DNA of 64,000 nucleotides from Eledone cirrhosa (lineage: Eukaryota), in contig OZ024740.1 in the NCBI GenBank assembly GCA_964016885.1, positions 203,608,001 through 203,672,000 on the forward strand. The letters are read 5' to 3'. The notes under the pieces were generated by a model. It was not told where the DNA came from. It did no database searches and worked only from the letters and a program-made list of their open reading frames with translations. Position 1 is the stretch's first letter. Each line of letters begins with the position of its first letter. A program made the translations under genes and the position numbers. Of this stretch, positions 9,136 through 53,948 are shown piece after piece.

Positions 9136-11425
9136 TTTAGGAGATTAGTATCGGTGTATATAAATATTATCAAGAATGACAATAAATGCAGGTGAGAGTT
9201 GTGACATGGTTTTACTTCACAGAAGTCAAATAAATTGTTATAAATAATTGTTACCACATGTTGATGTTCAGGTGGTCACAACTCCCAGACTGGAGTGTGT
9301 AAGGTTCAAGTGTTTCTTTAGGCTGCCGGTGTTCTTCTTCTTGGGTGCGAAGGAAGTGAAACAGGAGTCATCTCTTGACAAGGTCTCGGGTGTTCTTGTC
9401 CCTTCGAAGTTCAGGAGTAGAGTGTGTCTTATGGCTTGATTGTCCTCGACTATATAGTCCCCAGGGGGACGCAACTCCGTTTAGTACATGAATCTGCCGC
9501 TGGGAGTCGCACCGTGCTGAGTCACAGCCGTAAGGGGCCGCTTCAGTACCCTCCTCCAGACGCTAGGCGAAAAGCCCGAAGGTAACTGTAGCGAACCCAC
9601 AAGCATGGGCTCCCAGCCAGGCATGAAATATCAACGCAAGGGGTACATGTATGAAATCAGGCATGAAATGGTAAAGAAAAGGTACATAGTAATACAATAA
9701 AGAGAAAAACAAAAAAAAGACTCCAGTGGCCAGTTCACATGAAAACAGTTTGGCAGAGTTTGTTTCCAAAAAGGCTCCAGTGGCCAGTTCATATGATAAA
9801 AGTTTGGAAGAGTTCCTTGGGCCAGTGGACTCTTCGACCGGAACGGGTCGTGGTCTTGTATCTTGGTGATGAGGGGTGGGGGGCAAAGAAACAGGTGTGT
9901 GTGCAAAAGAGAAAGATGGGGGTGTATGTGGCTCAGGTGTGAGCATCTGTGTGGACCCATTTAAGTCTATCAACCGCAATGGTCTCTCTGGATCCCTTAA
10001 TGTCTACAGTGAAATGTTTATCAGAACGAGCTAATACACGGTAGGGTCCAGAGTACGGTTGTGTGAGAGGTGGTCTCACGGCATCGTTTCTTACGAACAC
10101 ATGGGTCCACGAGGCAATATCCCTCGGAACTGCAGCTTTAATAGTTTGTTTCCTAGTATTCATGGGCGGTAAGTCCTGAAAATAGGAGCGCAAACGAGAT
10201 ACATAGGAAACAGGGTCCTGGAAAGCAAGATCAACAGGGGCAAGCATTTGCCCAGGCAACGCTAGAGGAGCACCATACAGTAATTCGGCCGGGGAGAACC
10301 CAAGGTCCTCCTTTATTGATGACCGAATTCCTAACAACACAATAGGAAGGTACTCGCTCCAACGTTGAGAGTCTGGATAGGTGCGAAGAGCGGCCTTTAA
10401 TTGGCGGTGGAATCGTTCCACCATTCCGTTCGAAGCAGGATGATAGGCTGTGGTCCGAATCCGTTGAGCGCCAATGATCTTTGTGAGCTCAGAGAAAAGA
10501 TGTGACTCAAATTGTCTACCACGGTCTGTGGTGACTGTAGTTGGTACCCCAAAGCGAGTAATCCACCCTGATACCAGGGCACGCGCTACAGTTTCGGCAG
10601 TTATATCTTGTAAGGGGGTGGCTTCAGGCCATCGCGAAAAACAATCGATACAGGTCAAGAGGTACGAATATCCACTGCTGAATGGCCAAGGTCCAACGAT
10701 ATCAATGTGGATGTATTGAAACCGAGCATCTGGAGTACTGAAAGTACCAAGTGGAGTCCGGATGTGTCTGTGGACTTTAGATTTTTGACACTGTGTGCAG
10801 GAACGGCACCAGACAGTAATTTCTCGCCTCAGATTGGGCCAGAAAAATCTAGCCGTTATAAGCTTTACTGTGGCAGAAATTCCTGGGTGAGAAATGCTGT
10901 GCAAAGCAAGGAACACAATTCGACGGTGAGTCTCAGGAACAAGTGGTCATGGTGAATCCGTAGATACATCACATATAATCTGCCTGTCGGTGGTCGACAA
11001 GGCCAGATATTTGAAGATGCAAGTCGCAAATTCGGCAGAAAGAGTGTCCAACGATTGGAGTGCAGGTTGGTTTGCAGCTAAACGATCTAAGTCAATCTCC
11101 TGGGAGATGATGAGATGGAGCTGATTGGCAAACATGACAATGCGTCTGCAGCTATGTTATGCGAGCCAGCAATGTGCTGGATATCGTTTGTAAATTGTGA
11201 AACGTAGTCCAGGTGCCTTGTCTCTCTGGGCGAATATCTGTCGACTTTAGCCCTCAAAGCGAAGGTCAGAGGTTTGTGGTCGGTTGGCTTGATTGTCCTC
11301 GACTATATAGTCCCCAGGGGGACGCAACTCCGTTTAGTACATGAATCTGCCGCTGGGAGTCACGCCCGTCGCAAAGGGACGTAACTCTTATACGTGCTGA
11401 GTCACAGCCGTAAGGGGGCGCTACA
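9136..11425 (-). mobile_element. Internally deleted Ty3/Gypsy LTR retrotransposon
   Basis: 3' LTR at 9136-9545 with adjacent polypurine tract (reverse complement of GTACCCTCCTCCAG); partial 5' LTR at about 11284-11425; 4-bp TSD CATC; interrupts a family-A SINE. Confidence 0.9.
9933..11283 (-). pseudogene. Gypsy pol remnant: RNase H end and integrase
   Basis: DHKPL...QHIAG (RNase H end), HHCC zinc finger (HSISHPG...CTQCQ), DDE core ([23 protein letters not shown]) and GPY motif; frameshifted. Confidence 0.92.
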
Positions 11426-12107
11426 CATCCTTACGGGGTCGATAAAATAAAGTACCAGTAATACACTGGGATAATTGCTGGCCTTGTGCCAAAAGTAGAA
11501 ACAATTATGTACAGAAACAGCATAAAGTGCGAATGTTTATTTTTCAGTAATATTTGCCAGTTGTAAAGGCGCGTGGCGTAGTGGTTAATGTGTTCGGCTC
11601 ACGATCGTAATCTCGTGAATTCGATTCCCTGCAGCGAGTTGTTTTTGAGCTCCAGTCCATTCAGCTGACAAGAATTACGGTAAACGTATAGTATAGTGAA
11701 CCAATGTAAGGGACGAAATAAAAAAAAAAAAAAGGTTATTTTTCGACTATATTAACTATATATATATGTGTGGTATACATATAGGTATTAATTCTGTGTG
11801 TATATATAATTGTTTCTACTTTTTTGGCACAAGGCCAGCAAATACCCAGTGCATTACTGGTACTTTATTTTATGGACCCCGTAAGGATGAAAGGCAAAGT
11901 TAACCTCGGCAGGATTTGAACTCAGAATGGCAATGGACGTAACTCTATGTGTCAAAGCATGGCGTCCGACTCTCTACCAATACTGCCAATCCATCGCCCT
12001 GTATTAATGTAATAATACAGTACGAAATGAAGAGAAGTATAATAATATTATAAATAGAAATGAAAAAAAAATTGGAGTAGGGTTAGGCGTGCATTATATA
12101 TATATCC

Positions 12108-13043
12108 ATCTTGTTGCAAGCTGACCATGCTTGAGCCTTTCTGGTGGCGAAACCCTTCTCAGAGTCCATGATCCAGGACGCAAGATACTTGAAATCCTTG
12201 ACTTGCTTGATATCACTGCTGTTGATTGGTTTGATGCTGTTGCCTGTACAGTTTGATATGTACTCTGTTTTACCCTCGTTGAGATGAAGGCCAATGATGG
12301 CGGCTGCTTTCTGCTGAGCTGTCAAAAGTTGTTGCGCATTTTCTAGGCAATCTGCAGGAGCTGCAATGTCATCCGCAAAGTCAAGGTCAGTGAGATGTTT
12401 AGAGGGGTGCCTAGAGCTCATGCAGGGTTTGATGGTTATACCTTTGTTATTGATTTTGTCAATTGAGAGTCTCAGGGCATAGTCTAGTGCATTGATGAAG
12501 AGGAATGGGGCAAGAGTGTCACCCTGCAGCACATCTGCCGAGATGTCAAAGAACTCTGTTGGGCCATCAGGCAATCGAGTGTGGCACTCAAATCTTTCCA
12601 ACCACACTAAAATCAGACTCTTCCAAGTAACAATTCAACCAATTTTGCTATATGGAAGTGAAACATGGACGCTTTCATCCAAACAACAAAAGCACCTTGA
12701 TGGCACCTACAGTCGCCTGCTTCAACGCATTCAGAACATAAGCTGGCGACATCTGCCTTTGAGAGAGATATATGCCGGCCTCCCACGCATATCTGTCGTT
12801 GTACATAACAGGAGAGTAAGATTTGCTGGCCACTGCCATCGTGCCACCTATGAGGCTGTGGCCCCATTAGTGCTTTGGAAACCACAAGCAGTCACTAATA
12901 ACAGGGGATGCAAGCTCTCATACCCCGATTGCTATCCAGAGATTCTGGTGTTGAAATCCAGGACTTGGCAACGGCAATGAACGACAGACCCACGTGGAGA
13001 TCAATGGTTGAGTCCATTTCGGCTGAGGCCACCGGATGATGAT

Positions 13044-13045
<2 letters not shown>
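12108..13045. mobile_element. 5'-inverted RTE-like LINE fragment in (TA)n
   Basis: Minus-strand RT segment at 12108-12572 (QGDTLAPFLF, DFADD) abuts the plus-strand C-terminus at 12573-13045, which ends in an ATGATGAT tail. Confidence 0.85.
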
Positions 13046-13074
<29 letters not shown>

Positions 13075-13529
13075 CATGTCTATAAATACATTTATAAAGA
13101 TGCATGGTATGGTTATTATATATACACATATATAGAGTTAATACCTATATGTATACCACATATATATATAGTTAACATAAAGGGTCAGCTTGGTCACGTG
13201 CTGTCAGATCGAATTTCCATGAGAATTACGTTAAGAGTACACTTGTCTGCAGAATTCTCAGCCATTTACATGTTAATTTCATGAACAGGCTGTTCCGTTG
13301 ATCGAAAAACTGGAATACTCATTGTTGAAACCGATGTAGGTCTTCCATAGTAGGTTTGGGCTCATGACAAAAATAAACATACCAGACGAAAAAAAAAAAA
13401 AACTCCACATAGTATAAAGTAATACAGAAGTTGAATATATAGTGTTAGTTTCTTTATCTAATAAATTCTTCTTTTCTTTTCTTTTCTCTTCTCTTCGCCC
13501 ACTTATTCCTGAGAGGGTTGTGGAGGCAG

Positions 13530-14675
13530 AGTCCTCAAACACTCCTTCCAACAGGTCCTGTCAGAAGCAACCATCTCCAACTGATCTGGCTGGATCCCCA
13601 AGCGAGATCAGCTAAGCTCATGAATGTAATCCAACCATCTTGCTTGAGGTCTACCCCTGGGTCTCCTGCCAGTTGGTTTTCCCCATAAAATATGTCCAGC
13701 GATTCTTTCCTGAGACATTCTAACCACTTGCTGACAGTATTGGAACTGTGATCTCTCAATTCAGAGAAGTAGCGGCTCTATCTGGAGTGACTGTCTGATC
13801 TCTGCGCACTTTCAGGAAACCATTATTTGACCGCTTGTATTCATGATGATATTGTTTCGGTTATTACCCAACATTCATAACCTTAAGTAAGGGTTGGCAC
13901 GTATACCGAATTGAAGATAGCGAGTTTGGCTTGTAACACCTACCTCCCTTCTGATTACTGAATGCTGAAGCTGCCGCATTACTGCACCAGCTTTTGCAAT
14001 TCTTGCACTTAATTCAGTCTCTTGCCTTCCACCACTCGTGAACATGGCCCCGAGATACTTGAACTTCTCCACCTGCTTCAGTGGAACTCCATTCACATGT
14101 TGAGTGCACTGTGCAGGTTTCCTTGAGAGGAAGAGTGTCTCAGATTTTGCAGCACTGATTTTCATTTCAGCCATGCAGCACTCGGCATCAAACCTATCAA
14201 GTGCAAGTCGGAGATCACCTTTTGTCGAGTTAAATAACATGTCATCTGCAAATTGCAGCCAACTGGTTTTACACCTGCCAGTCGCAATACCACTTCCAAC
14301 CTGGCTCCGCATGTCAATCCTGTTCATGAAAATAATGAACAGGAGAGGTGACAGTACGCAGCCTTGGCGGAGTCCGACTCCTAAATTGAATGATTTCGAT
14401 TTAGCACTATTTATCCGAACACAAATAATCAGGCATTCGTATAGAGACAACAGGACAACAAGAAGCTGACCATTGATCTCATACTCCTGCAAAACTTTCC
14501 ACTGCAGATCCTGAGGAACATGGTCATTTGCCTTTTTGAGGTCTCCAAAACAAGAATATACCTTTTGGCAATACTCCCACGATTTCTCAAAGACCTGCTG
14601 CAGGTTGGCTGTGCTGCGTCCAGGGCCAAAACCACACTGTTCATCAGCTAGCTTTGATTCAACAATCTTCCTTAA
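13530..14675 (-). mobile_element. RTE-like LINE reverse transcriptase fragment
   Basis: EQCGF, RQGCVLSPLLF, QFADD and FKYLG motifs; degenerate. Confidence 0.88.
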
Positions 14676-14919
14676 TATTATACACAAAAATATACAATAA
14701 AAGGGAAAAACAAAAAGCCATCAATTCAGCACTAAGTGCATTAATCAGTTACACACCACAAGGGTCATCGGGACCTCCCTCAAATCCAGAACTACTTTAC
14801 CATGCCTGCACTATGTATGTGTGTAGATGAAAGATGTTCTGTATATCTGTAGATCAGTACACCTCTACCTGTGGTGATTAATGTTATAGGGTGTAGTGAC
14901 AATCTGGATGTAGTGTATG

Positions 14920-18480: not shown

Positions 18481-18586
18481 TTTGTACAGGTTTGTATGTG
18501 TATTTAACTATTTCTTTACTTACTAAAACTGTGATTTTGTATTATTCATGTTTATTCCATCTGTATTATTCATGTTTATTCCACAG

Positions 18587-19554
18587 GGTTATATGCTTAC
18601 CTTAAGGCCAACCCGGAAGAAGCTGCACAATTTGTCCCAGCTGGAAGACATAAAGACAATTTACCAACATATACCAAGGAGGAAATAGCCAAGCATTGTA
18701 CAAAAGATACCAAAATATGGGTCACATATAAAAATGGGGTTTATGACATCACTGACTATGTACAGAGCCATCCCGGAGGCAAGAAAATTCTCCTGGCAGC
18801 TGGAAAGTCTATAGAACCCTTTTGGTCACTCTATGCTGTTCATATGAATTCAGAAATTTTTGGAATCTTAGAAAGTTTCCGGATTGGTAATTTCAAGCCT
18901 GATCCAAAGGATTTAATAAAGTTGCAAGATGCTAATGATCCTTATGCTAATGATCCAGTGAGACACCCAGCACTGATTCCATCGTCTTTGAAACCTTTTA
19001 ATGCTGAACCACCTATAGAAATTCTAACTGAGAAATTTGTGACTCCAAAAGAAATCTTCTTTGTCAGAAACCACCTTCCTGTGCCAGAAGTCAATGGGGA
19101 AACCTTTAAGCTTGATGTAAAAGCAGAACAATCTAAAAGGACAATCAGTCTGTCACTGGAGGACTTGAAGAAGAAATTTCAAAAACATGATGTCACATCA
19201 GTGGTGCATTGTGCAGGTAATCGGCGCAGTGAAATGAAAGAAGTCAAACCAGTAAAGGGTTTAAACTGGAGTAACGCTGCGATTGGTAATGGTGTTTGGA
19301 GTGGTGTACGGTTAATTGATGTACTTCGACATGCAGGCATTGACTTCAACAATACAAGCTATAAACATATTCAGTTTGAAGGGTTGGATTTAGACCCCAC
19401 GGGAGCACCATATGGGGCTTCGATACCTATTGATTTGTTCAAGATTATTCAAGATGATGTCATTCTTGCATATGAAATGAATGGTGACGAGTTAACTCAA
19501 GATCATGGTTATCCATTACGAGCCATCATTCCAGGTGTGGTAGGAGCTCGTCAG
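18587..19554 (+). CDS. SUOX: Sulfite oxidase exon 2 (cytochrome b5 heme domain and Moco-binding domain)
   Basis: Acceptor CCACAG at 18581-18586. The open frame upstream of the listed ORF gives WVTYKNGVYDITDYVQSHPGG (b5 HPGG motif), then FFVRNHLPVP, CAGNRR (Mo-ligand Cys) and DHGYPLR. Donor CAG|GTAAGT at 19555, phase 0. Confidence 0.96.
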
Positions 19555-20679
19555 GTAAGTTGATATATACACCCAACTTATTCTTTCATTTTCTTTCATT
19601 GTTTCCTTCTTTTAACTACAGGCAGTGAGTTGGCATTTGTTAGGGTGTAAATTGTCTCGGTATTTGTTTTAGCTTACTGTGCTCCGAGTTCAACTTTGTC
19701 TTTCATCCTTTTGAGGCCATGTAAATAAAATACCAGTGAATTACTGGGGTCAGTTCTCTCTCTTCCTCTTTGGAAGAAATCGACTTTTCTCTGACCTGGT
19801 GAGGGATGAACTTCATATTTAAAATGCCCAAGACTCACTATCTGTCAGGACAGCACCCCGACAATTCCATTAAGAGTTAAGGGTCCTTTATTTTGAATTT
19901 TTTAATCTCATTTGTCTGCAGTAATTGACTGGTTAATGTATAAACTTGGGCCGTGTATTCTGGGAGAACACTGCATACCCACTAAAGATGGTAAATAATT
20001 CTGGTCTTGCAGTGTCATTAATAGAACTCCAGAGATTTCGATGATGAGTCTTCCAGTTGATCAATCAACTGAACAAACTGCTCATGAAATTAACATGTAA
20101 GTGGCTGAGCATTTCACAGTCATGTGTATTGTTAACATAATTCTCAGGGAGATTCAGCATGACACTGTATGTGACAAGGCTGGACCTTTGAATTACAGGT
20201 GCAGTACATCCAGTGGGTCTCCAGACAATTTCCATCTATCCAATTTCACATGCAGTAACACTTTCTCCAGTGGCAACCTTGTGCAGTCTGTGACTAATCC
20301 AGGCTCTGCTGCACTTCAGGCCAAATATTGGTTGCTCTCCAACAGGTCGAACCTGTAAGCAGTGGAGACTTTTGATGTCACTTCCTGTACTAGGTGATAC
20401 ATTGTGTCCTAGGGCATGACACTTTATTTCATGTTATTCCAGTTCACTCAGCTGTAGAAATGAATTGCAGTGTCACTGGTGCCAAGCTGTATTGGCCTTA
20501 GCCTTTTCCTTGGATGATATTGGTGGTGTGGAGAGGGGAGGCTGCTGGTTTTCCACAAAATACCCTTGCTCCAGCTTGTGCTTCAGAGAGGAATTTTTGT
20601 TCCAACTCTCTGCTCTGTGGCTTTCATTAAAAATATCGTAGTGAAAAGGTTAAAGTAGTTTTTTTTCTCTTACTTTCAG

Positions 20680-21204
20680 GTGAAATGGTTACAGAAGATA
20701 ATATTGAGTTCTGATGAGAGTACCAGTCATTGGCAACGCCGAGATTACAAAGGGTTTAACCCCTCAATTGACTGGCACAATGTGGATTTTGATTCTGCAG
20801 AATCTATTCAGCAGTTTCCAGTTCAATCTGTGATCAGTAATCCGTCCCCAGATAGTTATGTTAATGAAGATGAGGAGGAGATTGAAATCCAAGGGTATGC
20901 CTGGAGTGGTGGTGGTCGTGGTATTATACGTGTTGATGTTTCTATTAATGGAGGTAAGACTTGGCATGATGCTACTCTTCAGACAGCTGACCAGTCCCTA
21001 TATCAAACGTATTCCTGGACATTGTGGTCAGCAACAGTTAAAATCCCCCCAAACCACAAGGGTAGATTGGATCTTGTTTGTAAAGCAACAGATATATCTT
21101 ATAATACACAACCTGACTCTTTTGAAGGTATTTGGAACCTTAGGGGAGTATTAAGTAATGCATGGCATCGAATCACGGTAAATGTTGAAAAAGATAATGC
21201 ATAG
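20680..21204 (+). CDS. SUOX: Sulfite oxidase exon 3 (C-terminal dimerisation domain)
   Basis: Acceptor TTTCAG at 20674-20679 joins GARQ|VKWL. Contains GYAWSGGGRGIIRVDVS and WNLRGVLSNAWHR; TAG stop at 21202-21204. Confidence 0.96.
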   Translation: MKWLQKIILSSDESTSHWQRRDYKGFNPSIDWHNVDFDSAESIQQFPVQSVISNPSPDSYVNEDEEEIEIQGYAWSGGGRGIIRVDVSINGGKTWHDATLQTADQSLYQTYSWTLWSATVKIPPNHKGRLDLVCKATDISYNTQPDSFEGIWNLRGVLSNAWHRITVNVEKDNA

Positions 21205-30730: not shown

Positions 30731-30854
30731 GTATGAGGTGAGTTTTATTGTAGCACAATAAAGCAATGCAAATATCGGATAAGTAGCACTCAACAGTTTA
30801 TAGGACTGGAGTATACATAATATAAAATCAAAAGATGGTTAAAAGAGTTCCATG

Positions 30855-30925
30855 TATTTTATTATGCGCATTTCAAAAACAAATATCATCATGGGATGAT
30901 ATTTGCGTTCTCATCAGATAAAATA
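30855..30925 (-). ncRNA. Type I hammerhead ribozyme in PLE pseudo-LTR
   Basis: TATTTTAT-CTGATGA-[stem II containing CAAATATCATC / GATGATATTTG]-GAAA-TGCGCA-TA-ATAAAATA. Confidence 0.85.
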
Positions 30926-31160
30926 GGGAGACATGATATGAAGTTTCAAAAACACTTGCGAGCAGTGAAGTGTCAAATGAACATATGAAAAATAAAATAA
31001 GATGGATATATGAGATTGGCCAAAAGGAAAGGAAGGGGGGAAGGAAAAGGAAAGGAAGAGGAAGAAAGAATATAGATAGAAGAAAAAATAATAATAATAA
31101 GGAAAGGATGACGGAGGAGGAGTATAAGAAGGAAGGATGAGAGAGGAGGAGAAAATGAGT

Positions 31161-35244: not shown

Positions 35245-35278
35245 AACAACAGTTTTATATATATAGATTATAAATTCT

Positions 35279-35331
35279 CTGCTATATATATTTCGGTGAC
35301 AGCTATTATTGGCTGTGACCTCTTCAGGCAG
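35279..35331 (-). ncRNA. Type I hammerhead ribozyme (left arm of palindrome)
   Basis: CTGC-CTGAAGA-GGTcACAGC(caataata)GCTGTcACC-GAAA-TATATA-TA-GCAG. Confidence 0.8.
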
Positions 35332-35553
35332 TCCGAATTGGTGTGGAAAAGACAGGTACACATGTTGAAGTGTGTTCCACTCTGTCAATACATCGATATG
35401 TCCAGCTCTTGGGTGTGTTGTTAGTCCTCTGAGGAACTGGAATCATACCCAGGAAGACTAAAAACACACCCAGGAGCTGGACCTATCGATGTATTGACAG
35501 AGTGGAACACACTTCAACAACATGTGTACCTGTATTTTCCACACCAATTCGGA

Positions 35554-35606
35554 CTACCTGAAGAGGTCACAGCCAATAATAGCTGTCACCGAAATATATA
35601 TAGCAG
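35554..35606 (+). ncRNA. Type I hammerhead ribozyme (right arm of palindrome)
   Basis: Same motif as 35279-35331 on the opposite strand; one stem I mismatch (CTAC). Confidence 0.75.
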
Positions 35607-35669
35607 AGAATTTATAATTTATAATAAACGAGCCAAATTTTACATGTTTGACTTATATATATATATATT

Positions 35670-38129: not shown

Positions 38130-40430
38130 TAGAAAGTGAGGTTTTTTTTACAAAATGAAAAATAACCAAGGTGTTCTACACGAGTGAAAGTATAAAGAAA
38201 AAAAGATGAATTCGAAAATGCAACTGGAGTCTTATTTAAACAAAAATATATATATTTATTTGGTTCCTTTACTGGTTTCGCAGTTCTTCTGCTTTTCAAA
38301 AGTAGAGTTGAGATGGAAGGTCTGTGTTTTTCTCACATCTGGTTGGTCTTTGAATGTTACTTGTTTTATATGGAAAAAAGTGGCTCGAAACGCCAGGTTT
38401 TTAGAGAAGTAATTTGATTGGTTGGTCAATAAGTATAATAAATTTCGCGCCAGTACGCGTTACAAAGTTCTTCAAACCAGGGTGTGTGTGTGTGTGTGTG
38501 CTCAGGTTGTTTTTTCATATATGAGTGAAGTGTTTGGTTGGTTGATGTAGTCACGTGACTAAGTATATCAGCTTTCGCGTAAGTTTGTTTGAATTTCTTT
38601 TTACTTAAAAAAAGTGGCTCACGAAGGCTTTTTTTAATAAATATAATTTGATTGGTTATAAATGAAATTATGACTGTAACGTGAACAAATTCATTAAATT
38701 TCGCGCCCGTATTTGGGAATTTATTTTGTATCCTTTTAAAGAATTTTATGACAAGCAAAAGATAATGGTCAAGAGAAATGGGATGGGAGAATTGTTCTGG
38801 TTCAGTGAATATGGTTGGTTCGCTGGGGTGTCAGAATTCAGATTTTTTATTGAAATAAAGAAAGTAAAGATATGTATGTTTATTTGTGTGCTTGTGTGTG
38901 TGTGTGTGTGTGTGTGTATAGGAAGATGATTCTATTAGTAGAAATGCGGGAGGATGTTGTGTGTGTGTATGTGGGTGTTATGTGTGTGTGTGGGAGTATG
39001 TTAAGATAGAGAGAATATATATATTTTGCGTGTGTGTGTATATGTGTGTAGGAAAGTGATTCTATTAGTAGAAATGGGGGAGGGAGTTGTGTGTGTGTGG
39101 GGGGGGGGTGTTATGTGTGTGTATGGGTGTTATGTGTGTGTGGGAGTATGGTTAGCATGTTAAGATGAAGAGAATATATATATATTGTGTGTGTGTGTGT
39201 GTAGGAAAATGATTCCGTTAGTAGGAATATTTTTGAATGAACATATTTTCCTTATTCGTATTTGTTCTGTTGTATTGTCAGCGCAAACGTATGTTAAGGT
39301 TTATTTAGTTCGGGTTTTTATTTTCTAAAGTAGAAGGTGTTATGTGTGTGTGTGTATGTGTCTGTTTGGATGGTTAGCATGTTATGGTGTTGACATAATG
39401 TATATTAAACCATATTTAATGCTGGTCTATATTTTTGAATAAACATATTTTCCTTATTTATTCGTATTTGTTCTGTTGTATTGTCAGCGCAAAGGTAAAA
39501 TGGGAAGACTTGGAATTTGGGTGTCTTATTACTTGCGCATATGTCTAGATGTGCGCTTAGTGGTATCTGTCTCGTGGTTGGATCTCGTAATTGTTGGCGA
39601 TGAACTGTCATTCTGTTTCTGAGTGTGAGTTTAGTTTGTCCTATATAATCTTCATTGCATCCTTTACATTTAATAGAATAAATTAGATTTTTTGATGAGC
39701 AAGTGAAGTGATTTTTTACAGCAAAATCTTGTCCTGATTTAAATGTATACGTGTTGCCTTCAATGAGGTGAGTGCAGGTTCCACAATTAGAGCAACCATA
39801 TTTTTTGACAGTTGGTTGTGGGTTTGTGGTAGGTAATTTGGCATCGGTAAGTAATATTTTCAGTGATTTCGGTTGTCTTTTGCTTTTGATTATTTTGTGT
39901 GTTTCAAGGGCTTTTTTCATTCTTGGTCCTTGTTTCAGTAGTGGGATGTTCTTGTGAATAGTGTTGTAAGCTTCCGCATTTCTTGGGTTGTGTGTTGAGA
40001 TATATGATAGAATATTGGACGTACCTTGAATTTGTTTCTGTTTTCGTAATTCATCAATGCCTATTGCTTTAGCCTTTTCTATTCCATTATTTATTAATAA
40101 TGGTGGGTACTCTCTCTCGAGTAGAATTTCCTTTAATTCTTGAAGTTTTTTATTTCGCGTTTCATAATTGGAGACAATTGTGCAAATTCTTCTTGCTAGG
40201 TTAAAAGGAATGTTCGTCTTCGTATGCTTTGGATGGTTGGAGGTGAATAGCAGGTATTGTTTGGAATCTGTTGGTTTGTAGTGTATGTCAGTTTCAATAT
40301 TTGTGTCTTTTTTTAAGATTAAGATGTCCAGAAATGGGAGTTGATCTTGGCTGTATTCCATTGTAAATTGGATGTGGTTATTGATGCCGTTTATTAAGTT
40401 TTTGAAATCATTCAGTTGGTCGAGTGTGTG
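38130..40430 (-). mobile_element. Penelope-like element 3' part (Neptune-like: RT thumb, Cys linker, GIY-YIG, 3' UTR)
   Basis: Uninterrupted 318-aa ORF at 39405-40361: PFLDIL, YKPTDSKQYL, CSNCGTC, LIYSIKCKGC..DYIGQT, RMTVHR and RPALN. Confidence 0.9.
38267..38302 (-). ncRNA. Hammerhead-like motif with U3-A8 variant core
   Basis: CTT-TTGAAAA-GCAG(aagaa)CTGC-GAAA-CCAG-TA-AAG; stem I is only 3 bp. Confidence 0.55.
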
Positions 40431-40431
40431 G

Positions 40432-40480
40432 GATATATATATGATATATATCTAATATATATATATATACATGATATATA

Positions 40481-41143: not shown

Positions 41144-41208
<65 letters not shown>
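40432..41208. repeat. (TA)n-derived higher-order microsatellite
   Basis: Recurrent unit TGATATATATCTAATATATA(T)TTA interspersed with pure TA runs. Confidence 0.95.
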
Positions 41209-41211
<3 letters not shown>

Positions 41212-41350
41212 GAATTTGTATTTAATTTGTTGGAATTCCGACAAACATAAATGCTTATAACTGATTTAGAGCACTCAACAGATTAGTGGAGTAAATATTC
41301 CAAGATATTAAATAAATGGAAACTATATTTATAAAACCATATTTATTTTA

Positions 41351-42609
41351 TCTACTATATAAATTGGAAGTGGTCGGACGTTGTATATGTAGGTGTCGTC
41401 GGATAAACGTCGAAACGGCTTGGTGGAATGCAGCGAAAATTTACACAGTTATGCAGAATGACCCGAGGAGGCGTTGGGTCGACATTCAAGCTACAAGCTT
41501 CCATGGTTACGGAGAAAATCGATGAAACAGGAATTTCCCATGAAACGGCTAGCCAAAGGGAAGGCCGACTTTCAACGTCACGTCAGTATCGTGAACGCTC
41601 GATTACGAGATTTGATATTTTGCGCGTTCTAAGCAGACTTCTACTGCATAAACAACACATTCAAATTAATAAAGTTCCTCGATCGGCTTCCAGGGAATAC
41701 AGTTTCATTTAAGTCTATTGACACCAACAAAAATGCTGAGGATGCCACAATGTTTACCATTGAATTCCTCAACAGTCAAACACCTCCTGGACTTCCGCCT
41801 CACGTCCTGCAGCTAAAAGTTGGTGCGCTGGTTATGATGCTAAGGAACTTGGACTCTCCAACAATGTGCAACGGAACACGAATGATCATCAAATCGTTAA
41901 AGTCCAAAATCTGGTTGCGACAATCTTGAATGGATCAGCTGATGGCACATACGTTCTAATTCCTCCAGTACAACTCAGTCCATCTCACGTCGTCAACGAA
42001 TTTACGCGGCTGCAATATCCCATCAAACTCAGCTTTGCCATGACCATCAACAAAGCACAGGGACTATCGATGCAAGTGGTTGGACTGAATCTGAGTGAAC
42101 AGGTATTCTCACATGGCCAACTGTACGTTGGATGTTCCCGAGTAGGAAGTCCGCGGGGACTCTTCATTTACTCAACAAAAAGAGAAGTTAAAAATGTTGT
42201 CTACCAAGAGGCTCTACAATGATAACGCTCTTCATTGCCAGCCTCTTTTCCGTGCCATACATGGTTCGACTTCATGTCGATCTTCGCTTCTGTGCCAGCC
42301 CCATTTTAATTGCAAAGCAAATAAATGCACATAAGTTTGTGATTATTAATTTGGTTGATTTTTATGTTTGTCTTTGTTTGTGTTTTGTCTTTTTGGATTT
42401 CAATTTTTTTTCTCTTTTTGGGGTTTTCATATTTCTGTTTTCAACCTTATTTGACAGTAAATTTATTAGGATTTCGGTTTGTTATTCTTAATAATTTTTG
42501 TTTTTCGTGTTCCCTTTTTGTGATTTTTGTTGGTTTCTTGGTGGAGAAAAGAAGTTGAATTCTTATCAGTGAACCAAATCTCCCGGGTAAAACCGGGTTA
42601 AACAGCTAG
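41351..42609 (+). mobile_element. Internally deleted Helitron with Pif1-like helicase fragment
   Basis: A|TC start, subterminal hairpin CCCGG-GTAAAA-CCGGG (42582-42597), CTAG|T end and no TSD. Helicase motifs EFLNS..PPGLPPH.L.LKVG, FAMTINKAQG and FSHGQLYVGCSRV. The 5' end is repeated at 63039. Confidence 0.93.
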
Positions 42610-42795
42610 TTATATATATTTCAAGGGCAACCAAGGCAACCTTGGTGCGCTTTCATCAGATAAAATACAAAGTGTGTTTTATAAATAAAGACATATCCAT
42701 GATAATCAAACCTTATCGGTCGGAAATTCCAGTGAATTTCCGACCGATAAGGTTTGATTATCATGGATATGTCTTTATTTATAAAACACACTTTG

Positions 42796-42860
42796 TATTT
42801 TATCTGATGAAAGCGCACCAAGGTTGCCTTGGTTGCCCTTGAAATATATATAATAAAATA
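42796..42860 (+). ncRNA. Type I hammerhead ribozyme (right arm of perfect palindrome)
   Basis: TATTTTAT-CTGATGA-[AAG..GCA-CCAAGG ttg CCTTGG-t-TGC..CTT]-GAAA-TATATA-TA-ATAAAATA. Confidence 0.85.
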
Positions 42861-42902
42861 AATATGGTTTTATAAATATAGTTTCCATTTATTTAATATC
42901 TT

Positions 42903-42962
<60 letters not shown>

Positions 42963-43183
42963 TTAGTTAGTTAGAAAGTGAACAACACAAAATATAACTA
43001 CTTGTTATATTTTGTGTTGTTCACTTTCTAATTAAATAGCTCTGTTCTATATATATAGAGCACTCTTTTTTCCTTTGATTTTCCTTCGGAATTACCTAGC
43101 ATATATATAATATAATATATATATATATATAGTGAAAGATTGAAGAATAACATGGTCGGCTGTACAAAAAGGGTTTTATTTCA

Positions 43184-52850: not shown

Positions 52851-52899
<49 letters not shown>

Positions 52900-53270
52900 A
52901 GGAAGTCAAATATGTAAAATTTGGCTTCGTTTATTATAAATTATAAATTCTCTGCTATATATATTTCGGTGACAGCCATCATTGGCTGTGACCTCTTCAG
53001 AATTGGTGTGGAAAAGACAGGTACACATGTTGTTGAGGTGTGTTTCACTCCGTTAATACATCGATATGTCCAGCTCCAGGGTGTGTTGTTATTCCTCCGA
53101 GGAACTGGAATCATATTTTACATTATTCCGGAGTAAACAAACCAACCTGCGGATATGTTTCCAGTTCCTCGGAGGACTAACAACACACCCAGGAGCTGGA
53201 CATATCGATGTATTGATGGAGTGAAGCACACCTCAACAACATGTGTACCTATCTTTTCCACACAATTCGG

Positions 53271-53325
53271 ACTGCCTGAAGAGGTCACAGCCAATGATGT
53301 CTGTCACCGAAATATATATAGCAGT
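53271..53325 (+). ncRNA. Type I hammerhead ribozyme (same family as 35279/35554)
   Basis: ACTGC-CTGAAGA-GGTcACAG...CTGTcACC-GAAA-TATATA-TA-GCAGT; the mirror copy at 52952-53000 has lost the 5' strand of stem I. Confidence 0.8.
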
Positions 53326-53335
53326 AAATTTATAA

Positions 53336-53948
53336 TCTATATATATATAAAATTGAGGATGTCTGTGTGTGTGTGAGTTTGAATCCCTAAAACTCGAGAA
53401 GCACCCAACCGACTGTTTTCAAACTTGACACATGTAATACTTATGTTTCTAGGAGTGCTATGCACATACAAAATTCAACTTTTTGATCTCCTAGGGCCCG
53501 CATTAGGTGAATAACTGCGTTTTTAAAGCTTTTTAGGTTTTTTTTGAGGCGTTACGTCAGACCGATTTCCTTGAAATTGTAACTATGTATTAGTCATTCT
53601 CTTCTTCATACCGTGAGCAAAGAAAATCCAACTTTTTTATGGCATTAGGTGAAAAATTTCATTGTTTCAGCTTTTTAGGGCTTTTTTGAGGCGTTACGTC
53701 TAGCCGATTTTCCCGAAATTTCAAGGCATATTATGCACATAAAAAAAAATTATTTTATGATCCCTTAGGTGAAAACCTGCATTTTTCCTGCTTCATCAAG
53801 GAAAATCTTAAAGATTATCCAGCCATCAGAGTATTCGGTTTATTTTCTTTACATATTGTCCAGGCATGCAGTGTTTCCACGATTAGGTCTGTTGGCAGCC
53901 CGCGTTCCAAAATACCTTATCCCGTGCAACGCCGGGTATCACTGCTAG
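53336..53948 (+). mobile_element. Non-autonomous Helitron
   Basis: A|TCTATATA start, hairpin CCCGTGCAACGCCGGG and CTAG|T end; the empty site TTTATAA|TTTATAATAAACG is visible at about 35611-35630. Confidence 0.85.

Follow-up and report, generated by a model that had tools for sequence, protein, structure and literature searches.

A Helitron-split hammerhead palindrome in Eledone cirrhosa as a probable insertion form of a Hydra-clade Penelope-like element

The window analyzed here is a stretch of 64,000 nucleotides from Eledone cirrhosa (assembly GCA_964016885.1, contig OZ024740.1, positions 203,608,001 to 203,672,000 of the forward strand), and the genome searches covered the whole 3.0-Gb assembly. 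Elsewhere in the window lie pieces of a sulfite-oxidase-like host gene with cytochrome b5, molybdopterin and dimerisation domains (18535-21201, plus strand) and, on the minus strand, the integrase and reverse transcriptase (RT) fragments of an LTR-type element (9936-14720). The locus of interest (Table 1) is a palindrome with an inserted Helitron. Positions 42610-42729 and 42734-42853 are exact reverse complements of 120 bp each with CAGT between them, as the first-pass annotation had reported. The pairing resumes across the Helitron, where 42854-42904 match 41300-41350 exactly over 51 nt, and the match ends there; the continuation of the left arm beyond the Helitron had been correctly recognized, with 41299 included one base too far. 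Over the split palindrome the arms are identical at 171 of 171 bases, which bears out the proposed ancestral hairpin without open reading frames (ORFs) and with arms of about 170 bp, though a 91-bp tail on the long arm, from 41299 down to 41209, had been overlooked. The unit, which belongs to a Penelope-like element (PLE), is 437 bp long and asymmetric, with a long arm of 262 bp and a short arm of 175 bp. Both of its ends adjoin (TA)n, and this repeat on both flanks masks any target-site duplication. C3 and H17 refer to the usual numbering of hammerhead positions, and signed arm positions are counted from C3 of the plus-strand hammerhead (42804).

Table 1. Features of the palindromic locus, in positions of the window.
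Feature	Position	Strand	Basis or remark
(TA)n target microsatellite, left flank	41152..41207		end of a longer TA-rich tract
91-bp tail	41209..41299	-	confined to the long arm; +101 to +191 relative to hammerhead C3
Long arm, outer part	41300..41350	-	reverse complement of 42854-42904; carries the displaced stem I 3' strand of the minus-strand hammerhead
Non-autonomous Helitron, 1259 bp	41351..42609	+	TC...CTAG
C-terminal helicase fragment within the Helitron, 152 aa	41764..42222	+	PF02689
Long arm, inner part	42610..42729	-	-70 to +49
Minus-strand hammerhead, broken	42667 to 42610	-	within the long arm; C3 42659, H17 42611
Inversion junction	42728..42733		2-nt microhomology (42728-42729) and 4-nt loop
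Short arm	42730..42904	+	-74 to +100; 5'-truncated PLE end (pLTR/leader)
Type I hammerhead motif, intact	42796..42860	+	core letters and covariation
(TA)n target microsatellite, right flank	42905..42956

Two neighbors of the unit can be mentioned here. Adjoining the right flank is a small hairpin with 28-bp arms (42971-43031). Its arm represents the end of a repeat, of which 959 exact copies exist, some of them in close inverted pairs, and the hairpin is possibly another PLE-type stub. The same TA-rich tract that ends at the left flank adjoins a 348-aa frame on the minus strand (39408-40451) with a GIY-YIG domain (PF01541, E 2.6e-7), which is probably another PLE fragment.

The plus-strand hammerhead consists of an 8-bp stem I, C3 at 42804, a long stem II, a palindromic 8-nt helix III and H17 at 42852, and cleavage is predicted at 42852/42853. 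On the minus strand, the 3' strand of stem I has been lost to the Helitron, and the motif does not fold as a hammerhead in prediction. Only one hammerhead motif, that of the plus strand, is therefore intact today; because the minus-strand stem I has been displaced, a description as two ribozymes, one per strand, fits the state before the Helitron only. Rfam gave no hammerhead match at the gathering score or at E<=10, only hairpin-shaped chance matches, while the type I core (CUGAnGA, GAAA and UH) with helices I-III is recognizable from the core letters and from covariation. The 22 diverse copies compared were chosen by a pattern in which the core and portions of helices I and III are fixed, which inflates the values there; pairing is found in 89.9% of helix cells, against 39-55% when the helices are slid. 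Eight pairs have changed on both sides, helix II and helix III included; helix III keeps its palindrome in 100% of cells, and two of its four pairs show double changes. A single hammerhead of a third related family lies on the minus strand at 30740-30930, and its helix III palindrome carries compensatory changes to GC.

The motif resembles the metazoan PLE hammerheads described in PMC4209133 in its type I core, large helix II and small palindromic helix III, which is the dimer-dependent type, but differs from them in an AU-only stem I of 8 bp with a possible distal extension; cleavage here is a predicted property. Dual hammerhead motifs on opposite strands, 100-700 bp apart, have been described in Schistosoma (PMC4209133), and related PLE hammerheads are described as inactive monomers that need a same-sense partner, or, in one related motif, as needing protein (PMC11167929). 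A transcript through the present locus would carry a single sense hammerhead motif, and in fold prediction the read-through hairpin, at about -210 kcal/mol, is far more stable than the ribozyme fold, at about -31 kcal/mol, in line with the earlier expectation that long dsRNA would compete with ribozyme folding. Since one copy is broken and the other needs a same-sense partner and would be buried in the 120-bp hairpin, the ribozyme would have no role at this locus. If transcribed, the hundreds of near-perfect hairpins per family could readily supply dsRNA. Splice-like letters had suggested an intron across the hammerhead, an idea that was dropped because a full-length copy (L155) carries an ATG of its own downstream of the tail.

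The palindrome belongs to a large family. Searching the genome with the arm yielded 651 candidates, the best 30 of which have 95-100% identity, and a 28-mer from the arm occurs exactly 200 times, compared with 0 for a control. The other genomic copies that the first-pass annotation had asked for were thereby found, many of them as adjacent head-to-head pairs (48 of 90 surveyed insertions, see below). Frames for RT and endonuclease lie upstream of the arm on the same strand in the copies L006, L010, L015, L033 and L036, and a single ORF with both also occurs in L156, L157 and L158. In L155, the hammerhead and the tail are followed by a 741-aa frame, the ATG of which stands at +243 from C3, right after the tail, and in L138 the tail runs on into the ORF in the same way; the 91-bp tail thus leads into the ORF leader in full-length copies. 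Hammerhead and tail are placed 5' of the ATG in L155 and L138, and the same end sequence is placed 3' of the ORF in L033, L036, L157 and L158. As the arm sequence serves as both 5' leader and 3' end of the element, the arm is its pLTR.

The family protein has the motifs RWR, DKT, YRDD, CxCX5C, NY(V/I)G, CxxC and CxH and lacks CCHH. The Hydra clade of PLEs is defined by RWK-like, DKT, CxCX5C, CxxC and CxH motifs without CCHH (PMC8557442), and this set, with RWR as the family's RWK-like form, is found here together with a (TA)n target and a hammerhead. A single ORF with RT followed by a GIY-YIG endonuclease, tied to the end sequence, is present in other copies only and is recognized by motifs. 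Neither Pfam, searched with the element frames, nor sequence searches of the PDB returned an RT or GIY-YIG match, and the domains are accordingly named from the motifs and from the description of the Hydra clade. There are 31 full-length database homologues at 31-42% identity, unnamed save one that is mislabelled. The protein family was assigned by motifs and by by-eye comparison with the published Hydra-1_Obim sequence; compared by eye with this listed mollusc family, the proteins are alike, while the hammerhead and leader sequences differ. With the C-terminal EN+ PLEs of the Hydra clade, as described in PMC8557442, the family shares a single frame of ~740 aa, the same motifs without CCHH, a pLTR hammerhead, (TA)n targets, an inverted 5'-truncated neighbor copy and a tail at one end. 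It differs from that description in its tail, which is 91 bp instead of 30-40 bp (PMC8557442), and in that most copies are ORF-less stubs. We regard the locus as almost certainly the hammerhead-bearing end of a Hydra-clade PLE, inserted into (TA)n.

The arrangement of the arms was surveyed in the first 100 of the 200 28-mer matches, which represent 87 loci and 90 insertions; being drawn from matches of one 28-mer, this sample is biased to young copies with an intact core. Flanks of 1.5 kb were used for 31 of the 87 loci and longer ones for the remainder, and arm ends are BLAST ends with a precision of ~2 nt. The 90 insertions comprise 48 adjacent head-to-head pairs, 13 cases in which the inverted partner lies at a distance, and 29 single insertions. 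In 43 of the 48 pairs, this locus included, one arm extends to ~+100 and the other to ~+191; the others are two long-long pairs, one short-short pair and two unclassified. Of the 46 pairs that could be classified, 43 hence combine a short and a long end (p 5e-10), where independent choice of ends would make half of the pairs mixed. PLE insertions that pair an inverted, 5'-truncated copy with a tail at one end have been published (PMC8557442, PMC3846280), and the arrangement recurs here as an adjacent inverted copy in 48 of the 90 insertions, 43 of them with one short and one long arm. The palindrome is thus not a special arrangement but the family's standard insertion form, and its architecture has already been described (PMC8557442, PMC3846280, PMC4209133).

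A second hammerhead family, with 2444 candidates in the genome, has left two head-to-head pairs in the same window. One is located at 35260-35660 (cores 35327-/35558+, arms identical at 159 of 165 bases) and the other at 52895-53345 (cores 53000-/53276+, arms identical at 170 of 181 bases), and each has one short and one long arm and TA flanks. A fixed 5' edge in this second family was considered and dropped, since the reference may end there in junction filler.

At the other end of the arms, 5' starts are concentrated in the first family. The 119 arm starts include 35 between -81 and -76, 4 between -91 and -82 and 30 beyond -174, and the interval from -173 to -92 is empty. A small native palindrome sits at this -80 edge, and it could itself attract junctions. 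Within the 43 short-plus-long pairs, it is the short arm that extends further 5' in 28 and the long arm in 8, with 7 ties (p 0.001); in 16 the starts of both arms lie between -91 and -55, and in 11 the long arm consists of the tail only. Of the 22 junctions without extra bases, 16 show microhomology of at least 2 nt (the null mean is 3.4, with as many as 16 in 0 of 5000 trials), and 26 of the 48 junctions have inserted bases instead. The 4 nt of loop at the present junction are native to the element and belong to the short arm, and the 24-mer across the junction occurs once in the genome. Because this 24-mer is unique and the junctions differ among the 43 pairs, each palindrome was built anew at insertion. 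The same facts make it very improbable that a non-autonomous palindromic element, MITE-like or a retrozyme, moves as a ready-made hairpin, as the many similar ORF-less palindromes of 430-480 bp might suggest. Moreover, the head-to-tail tandem arrays of hammerhead units that define non-LTR retrozymes were seen in none of the 87 loci, all units being head-to-head or single.

The family, the head-to-head geometry, the 3' ends at +100 and +191, the -80 edge, the junction microhomology and the ends and target of the Helitron can be read directly from the sequences. As for how such a unit arises, we think it somewhat probable that coupled double priming on one RNA built the palindrome. The endonuclease would nick both target strands, after which one strand would prime at +100 and the other at +191, both in the 5' leader of the same RNA. 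The two cDNAs would extend towards the RNA 5' end near -80, probably the transcription start, and their 3' ends would then anneal and copy each other; at this locus they would have joined through the 2-nt microhomology. Beyond the +191 end, full-length copies (L138:5900-6140, L155:1900-1990) continue with a short TA run of their own, and beyond the +100 end with AT-rich bases, so that pairing with the RNA may help priming from a (TA)n target. L1 twin priming is a comparable process, in which a second internal primer on the same RNA leads to a head-to-head inversion joined by microhomology; in contrast to L1, both sites are fixed here, most products are inversions, and complete overlap of the arms is frequent. 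A more specific version, programmed twin priming, is in our view about evenly balanced between true and false: one RT dimer would prime both target strands at +100 and +191 of a single RNA, the trailing copy would stall at or displace the leading copy, synthesis would run off at the fixed RNA start, and the ends would anneal.

Several described systems bear on these steps. An internal promoter with an initiator is described for Drosophila Penelope, and rotifer pLTRs contain the Inr-like sequence TCACT (PMC3846280); by analogy with both, a transcription start near -80 is plausible. In vitro, a PLE protein from the anole cuts and extends both strands, and two internal start sites bound the tail (PMC11167929). 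This anole Poseidon element, PAc, is like the present family in that its two start sites bound the tail downstream of the hammerhead, which is described as dispensable for insertion (PMC11167929). PAc differs in that it belongs to another clade and its sites are inside the ORF, whereas those found here are in the leader before the ATG; pairing of the two sites in one insertion is not known to be described for PAc. The inverted-pLTR insertions of Penelope elements in Adineta vaga likewise show head-to-head pLTRs, a palindromic junction, an optional single tail and an Inr-like sequence (PMC3846280).

The A. vaga case was attributed to self-priming on an antisense template (PMC3846280), whereas the counts obtained here favor two cDNAs. 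Fold-back, in which the mirror arm arises by self-priming of one strand and the endonuclease later cuts two different 3' ends, has also been proposed for rotifer PLEs and for the tail (PMC3846280, PMC8557442). It would be helped by the small palindrome at the -80 edge and agrees with the 16 of 43 pairs in which both arms start close to that edge; it predicts microhomology as well and also explains the 8 pairs in which the long arm reaches further 5'. At this locus, however, the loop bases are in the short arm only and the tail is in the long arm only, which makes a simple fold-back impossible without later trimming. In 27 other pairs, too, the short arm has extra 5' sequence and only the long arm has the tail, so that, unless further trimming took place, neither arm can have served as the full template, and in 11 of 43 pairs the arms barely overlap. 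We therefore consider fold-back rather unlikely.

If double priming is programmed, this one mechanism would account for the tail of PLEs, for their inverted pLTR and for the abundance of ORF-less palindromes with hammerheads, and the family counts (43 of 46 with mixed ends, and the 28-to-8 lead of the short arm) are test data for it. The formation of the PLE tail and of the inverted end is treated as an open question in PMC8557442, and a literature search on Penelope twin priming with inversion returned no PLE paper, judged by title and start of abstract. The use of two 3' ends, once each per insertion almost always, ties the start sites seen in vitro to genomic architecture. The locus itself is of minor importance, being a dead stub hit by a second transposon, and the family is modestly informative on mechanism.

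The identical arms had been ascribed to recent origin or to arm-to-arm conversion, and the first explanation is the one that held up. A copy on another contig matches this arm at all 170 of 170 bases, and two further copies each depart from it at a single position. Across 37 pairs of the family, the median divergence between the arms is 3.0%, as against 2.2% to the nearest arm at another locus, and identical arms were found in 3 of the 37. Conversion is thus superfluous, as youth suffices and family arms diverge independently. Variants common to both arms and rare elsewhere do occur (9 in 5032 columns, versus 33 in 299504 for random pairs); a shared template explains them, and occasional conversion would too. 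The Helitron carries 10 private changes in 1259 bases relative to 19 relatives, and the older arms carry 0 in 171 (P ~0.07), a slight mismatch in age that shrinks if closer Helitron copies exist among those unscored. These shared variants, the mismatch and the absence of any difference in 171 bases, the Helitron-split part included, are what can be said for arms kept identical by conversion, or for a hairpin selected as regulatory dsRNA or ribozyme switch, with the Helitron site tied to ribozyme chemistry or structure. We hold this to be quite improbable: the arms have diverged in 34 of 37 pairs and are mutually no closer than to other copies, near-identical copies exist elsewhere in the genome, and the Helitron evidence given below points the same way.

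Identical arms could also result from an assembly or amplification artefact, namely a fold-back chimera. In seven sequencing runs the family is present and no record bridges either junction; these runs come from other samples or reduced-representation libraries, so that the gap in bridging among the matched reads and contigs proves nothing. Some reads show an uninterrupted arm, and such reads are not assignable to this locus. A chimera would have put the Helitron in both arms or in neither and would not obey the short-plus-long rule of the family, in which most other pairs have diverged arms. As the Helitron is in one arm only and the unit follows the family rules, an artefact is exceedingly improbable, and the youth of the insertion is the reading that we retain.

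Canonical Helitrons have TC...CTRR ends with a terminal hairpin and insert at A|T without target duplication. The element at 41351-42609 has the TC start, the CTAG end, a hairpin at 42582-42597 (12 nt from the end), the A|T target and no target duplication, and the same ends recur in other copies. Its helicase remnant matches PF02689 (E 7.7e-7, 27.9 bits against a cut-off of 27), with PF13538 below the cut-off; in distinction from canonical Helitrons it is non-autonomous and lacks a Rep domain. Of 1418 candidate relatives in the genome, 40 were scored; A precedes 10 of 10 clear 5' ends and T follows 10 of 10 aligned 3' ends. The Helitron would have inserted after the PLE palindrome had formed, splitting the long arm.

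The earlier placement of a Helitron of about 1.26 kb at A|T, 1 nt from the scissile bond of the minus-strand ribozyme, was confirmed: the element is 1259 bp long, its entry point is 42610/42609, and the bond predicted from H17 (42611) is 42611/42610. This proximity is very likely due to chance. Among 65 AT sites in the unit, 2 (3%) lie within 1 nt and 4 (6%) within 2 nt of a cut site, and 14 (22%) lie in or beside the 3' strands of the ribozymes. The targets of this Helitron family are mostly TA-rich DNA, and helix III is a TA run; with the A|T and TA-rich preference and 3-6% of AT sites this close, chance suffices. A link to ribozyme chemistry is further disfavored because Helitrons target DNA, because the TA-rich A|T site resembles the other targets of the family, and because a scan for its two end motifs in the other 86 loci found none. 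In a literature search on Helitron insertion into hammerhead ribozymes, none of the records listed dealt with such an insertion. Taken as a whole, the locus is likely a young, ORF-less, head-to-head PLE stub that was double-primed and later split by a Helitron at a chance site. Six Helitron copies (L044, L045, L047, L049, L051 and L053) have a variant 3' end without CTAG and the same downstream flank, which suggests a composite or captured subfamily.
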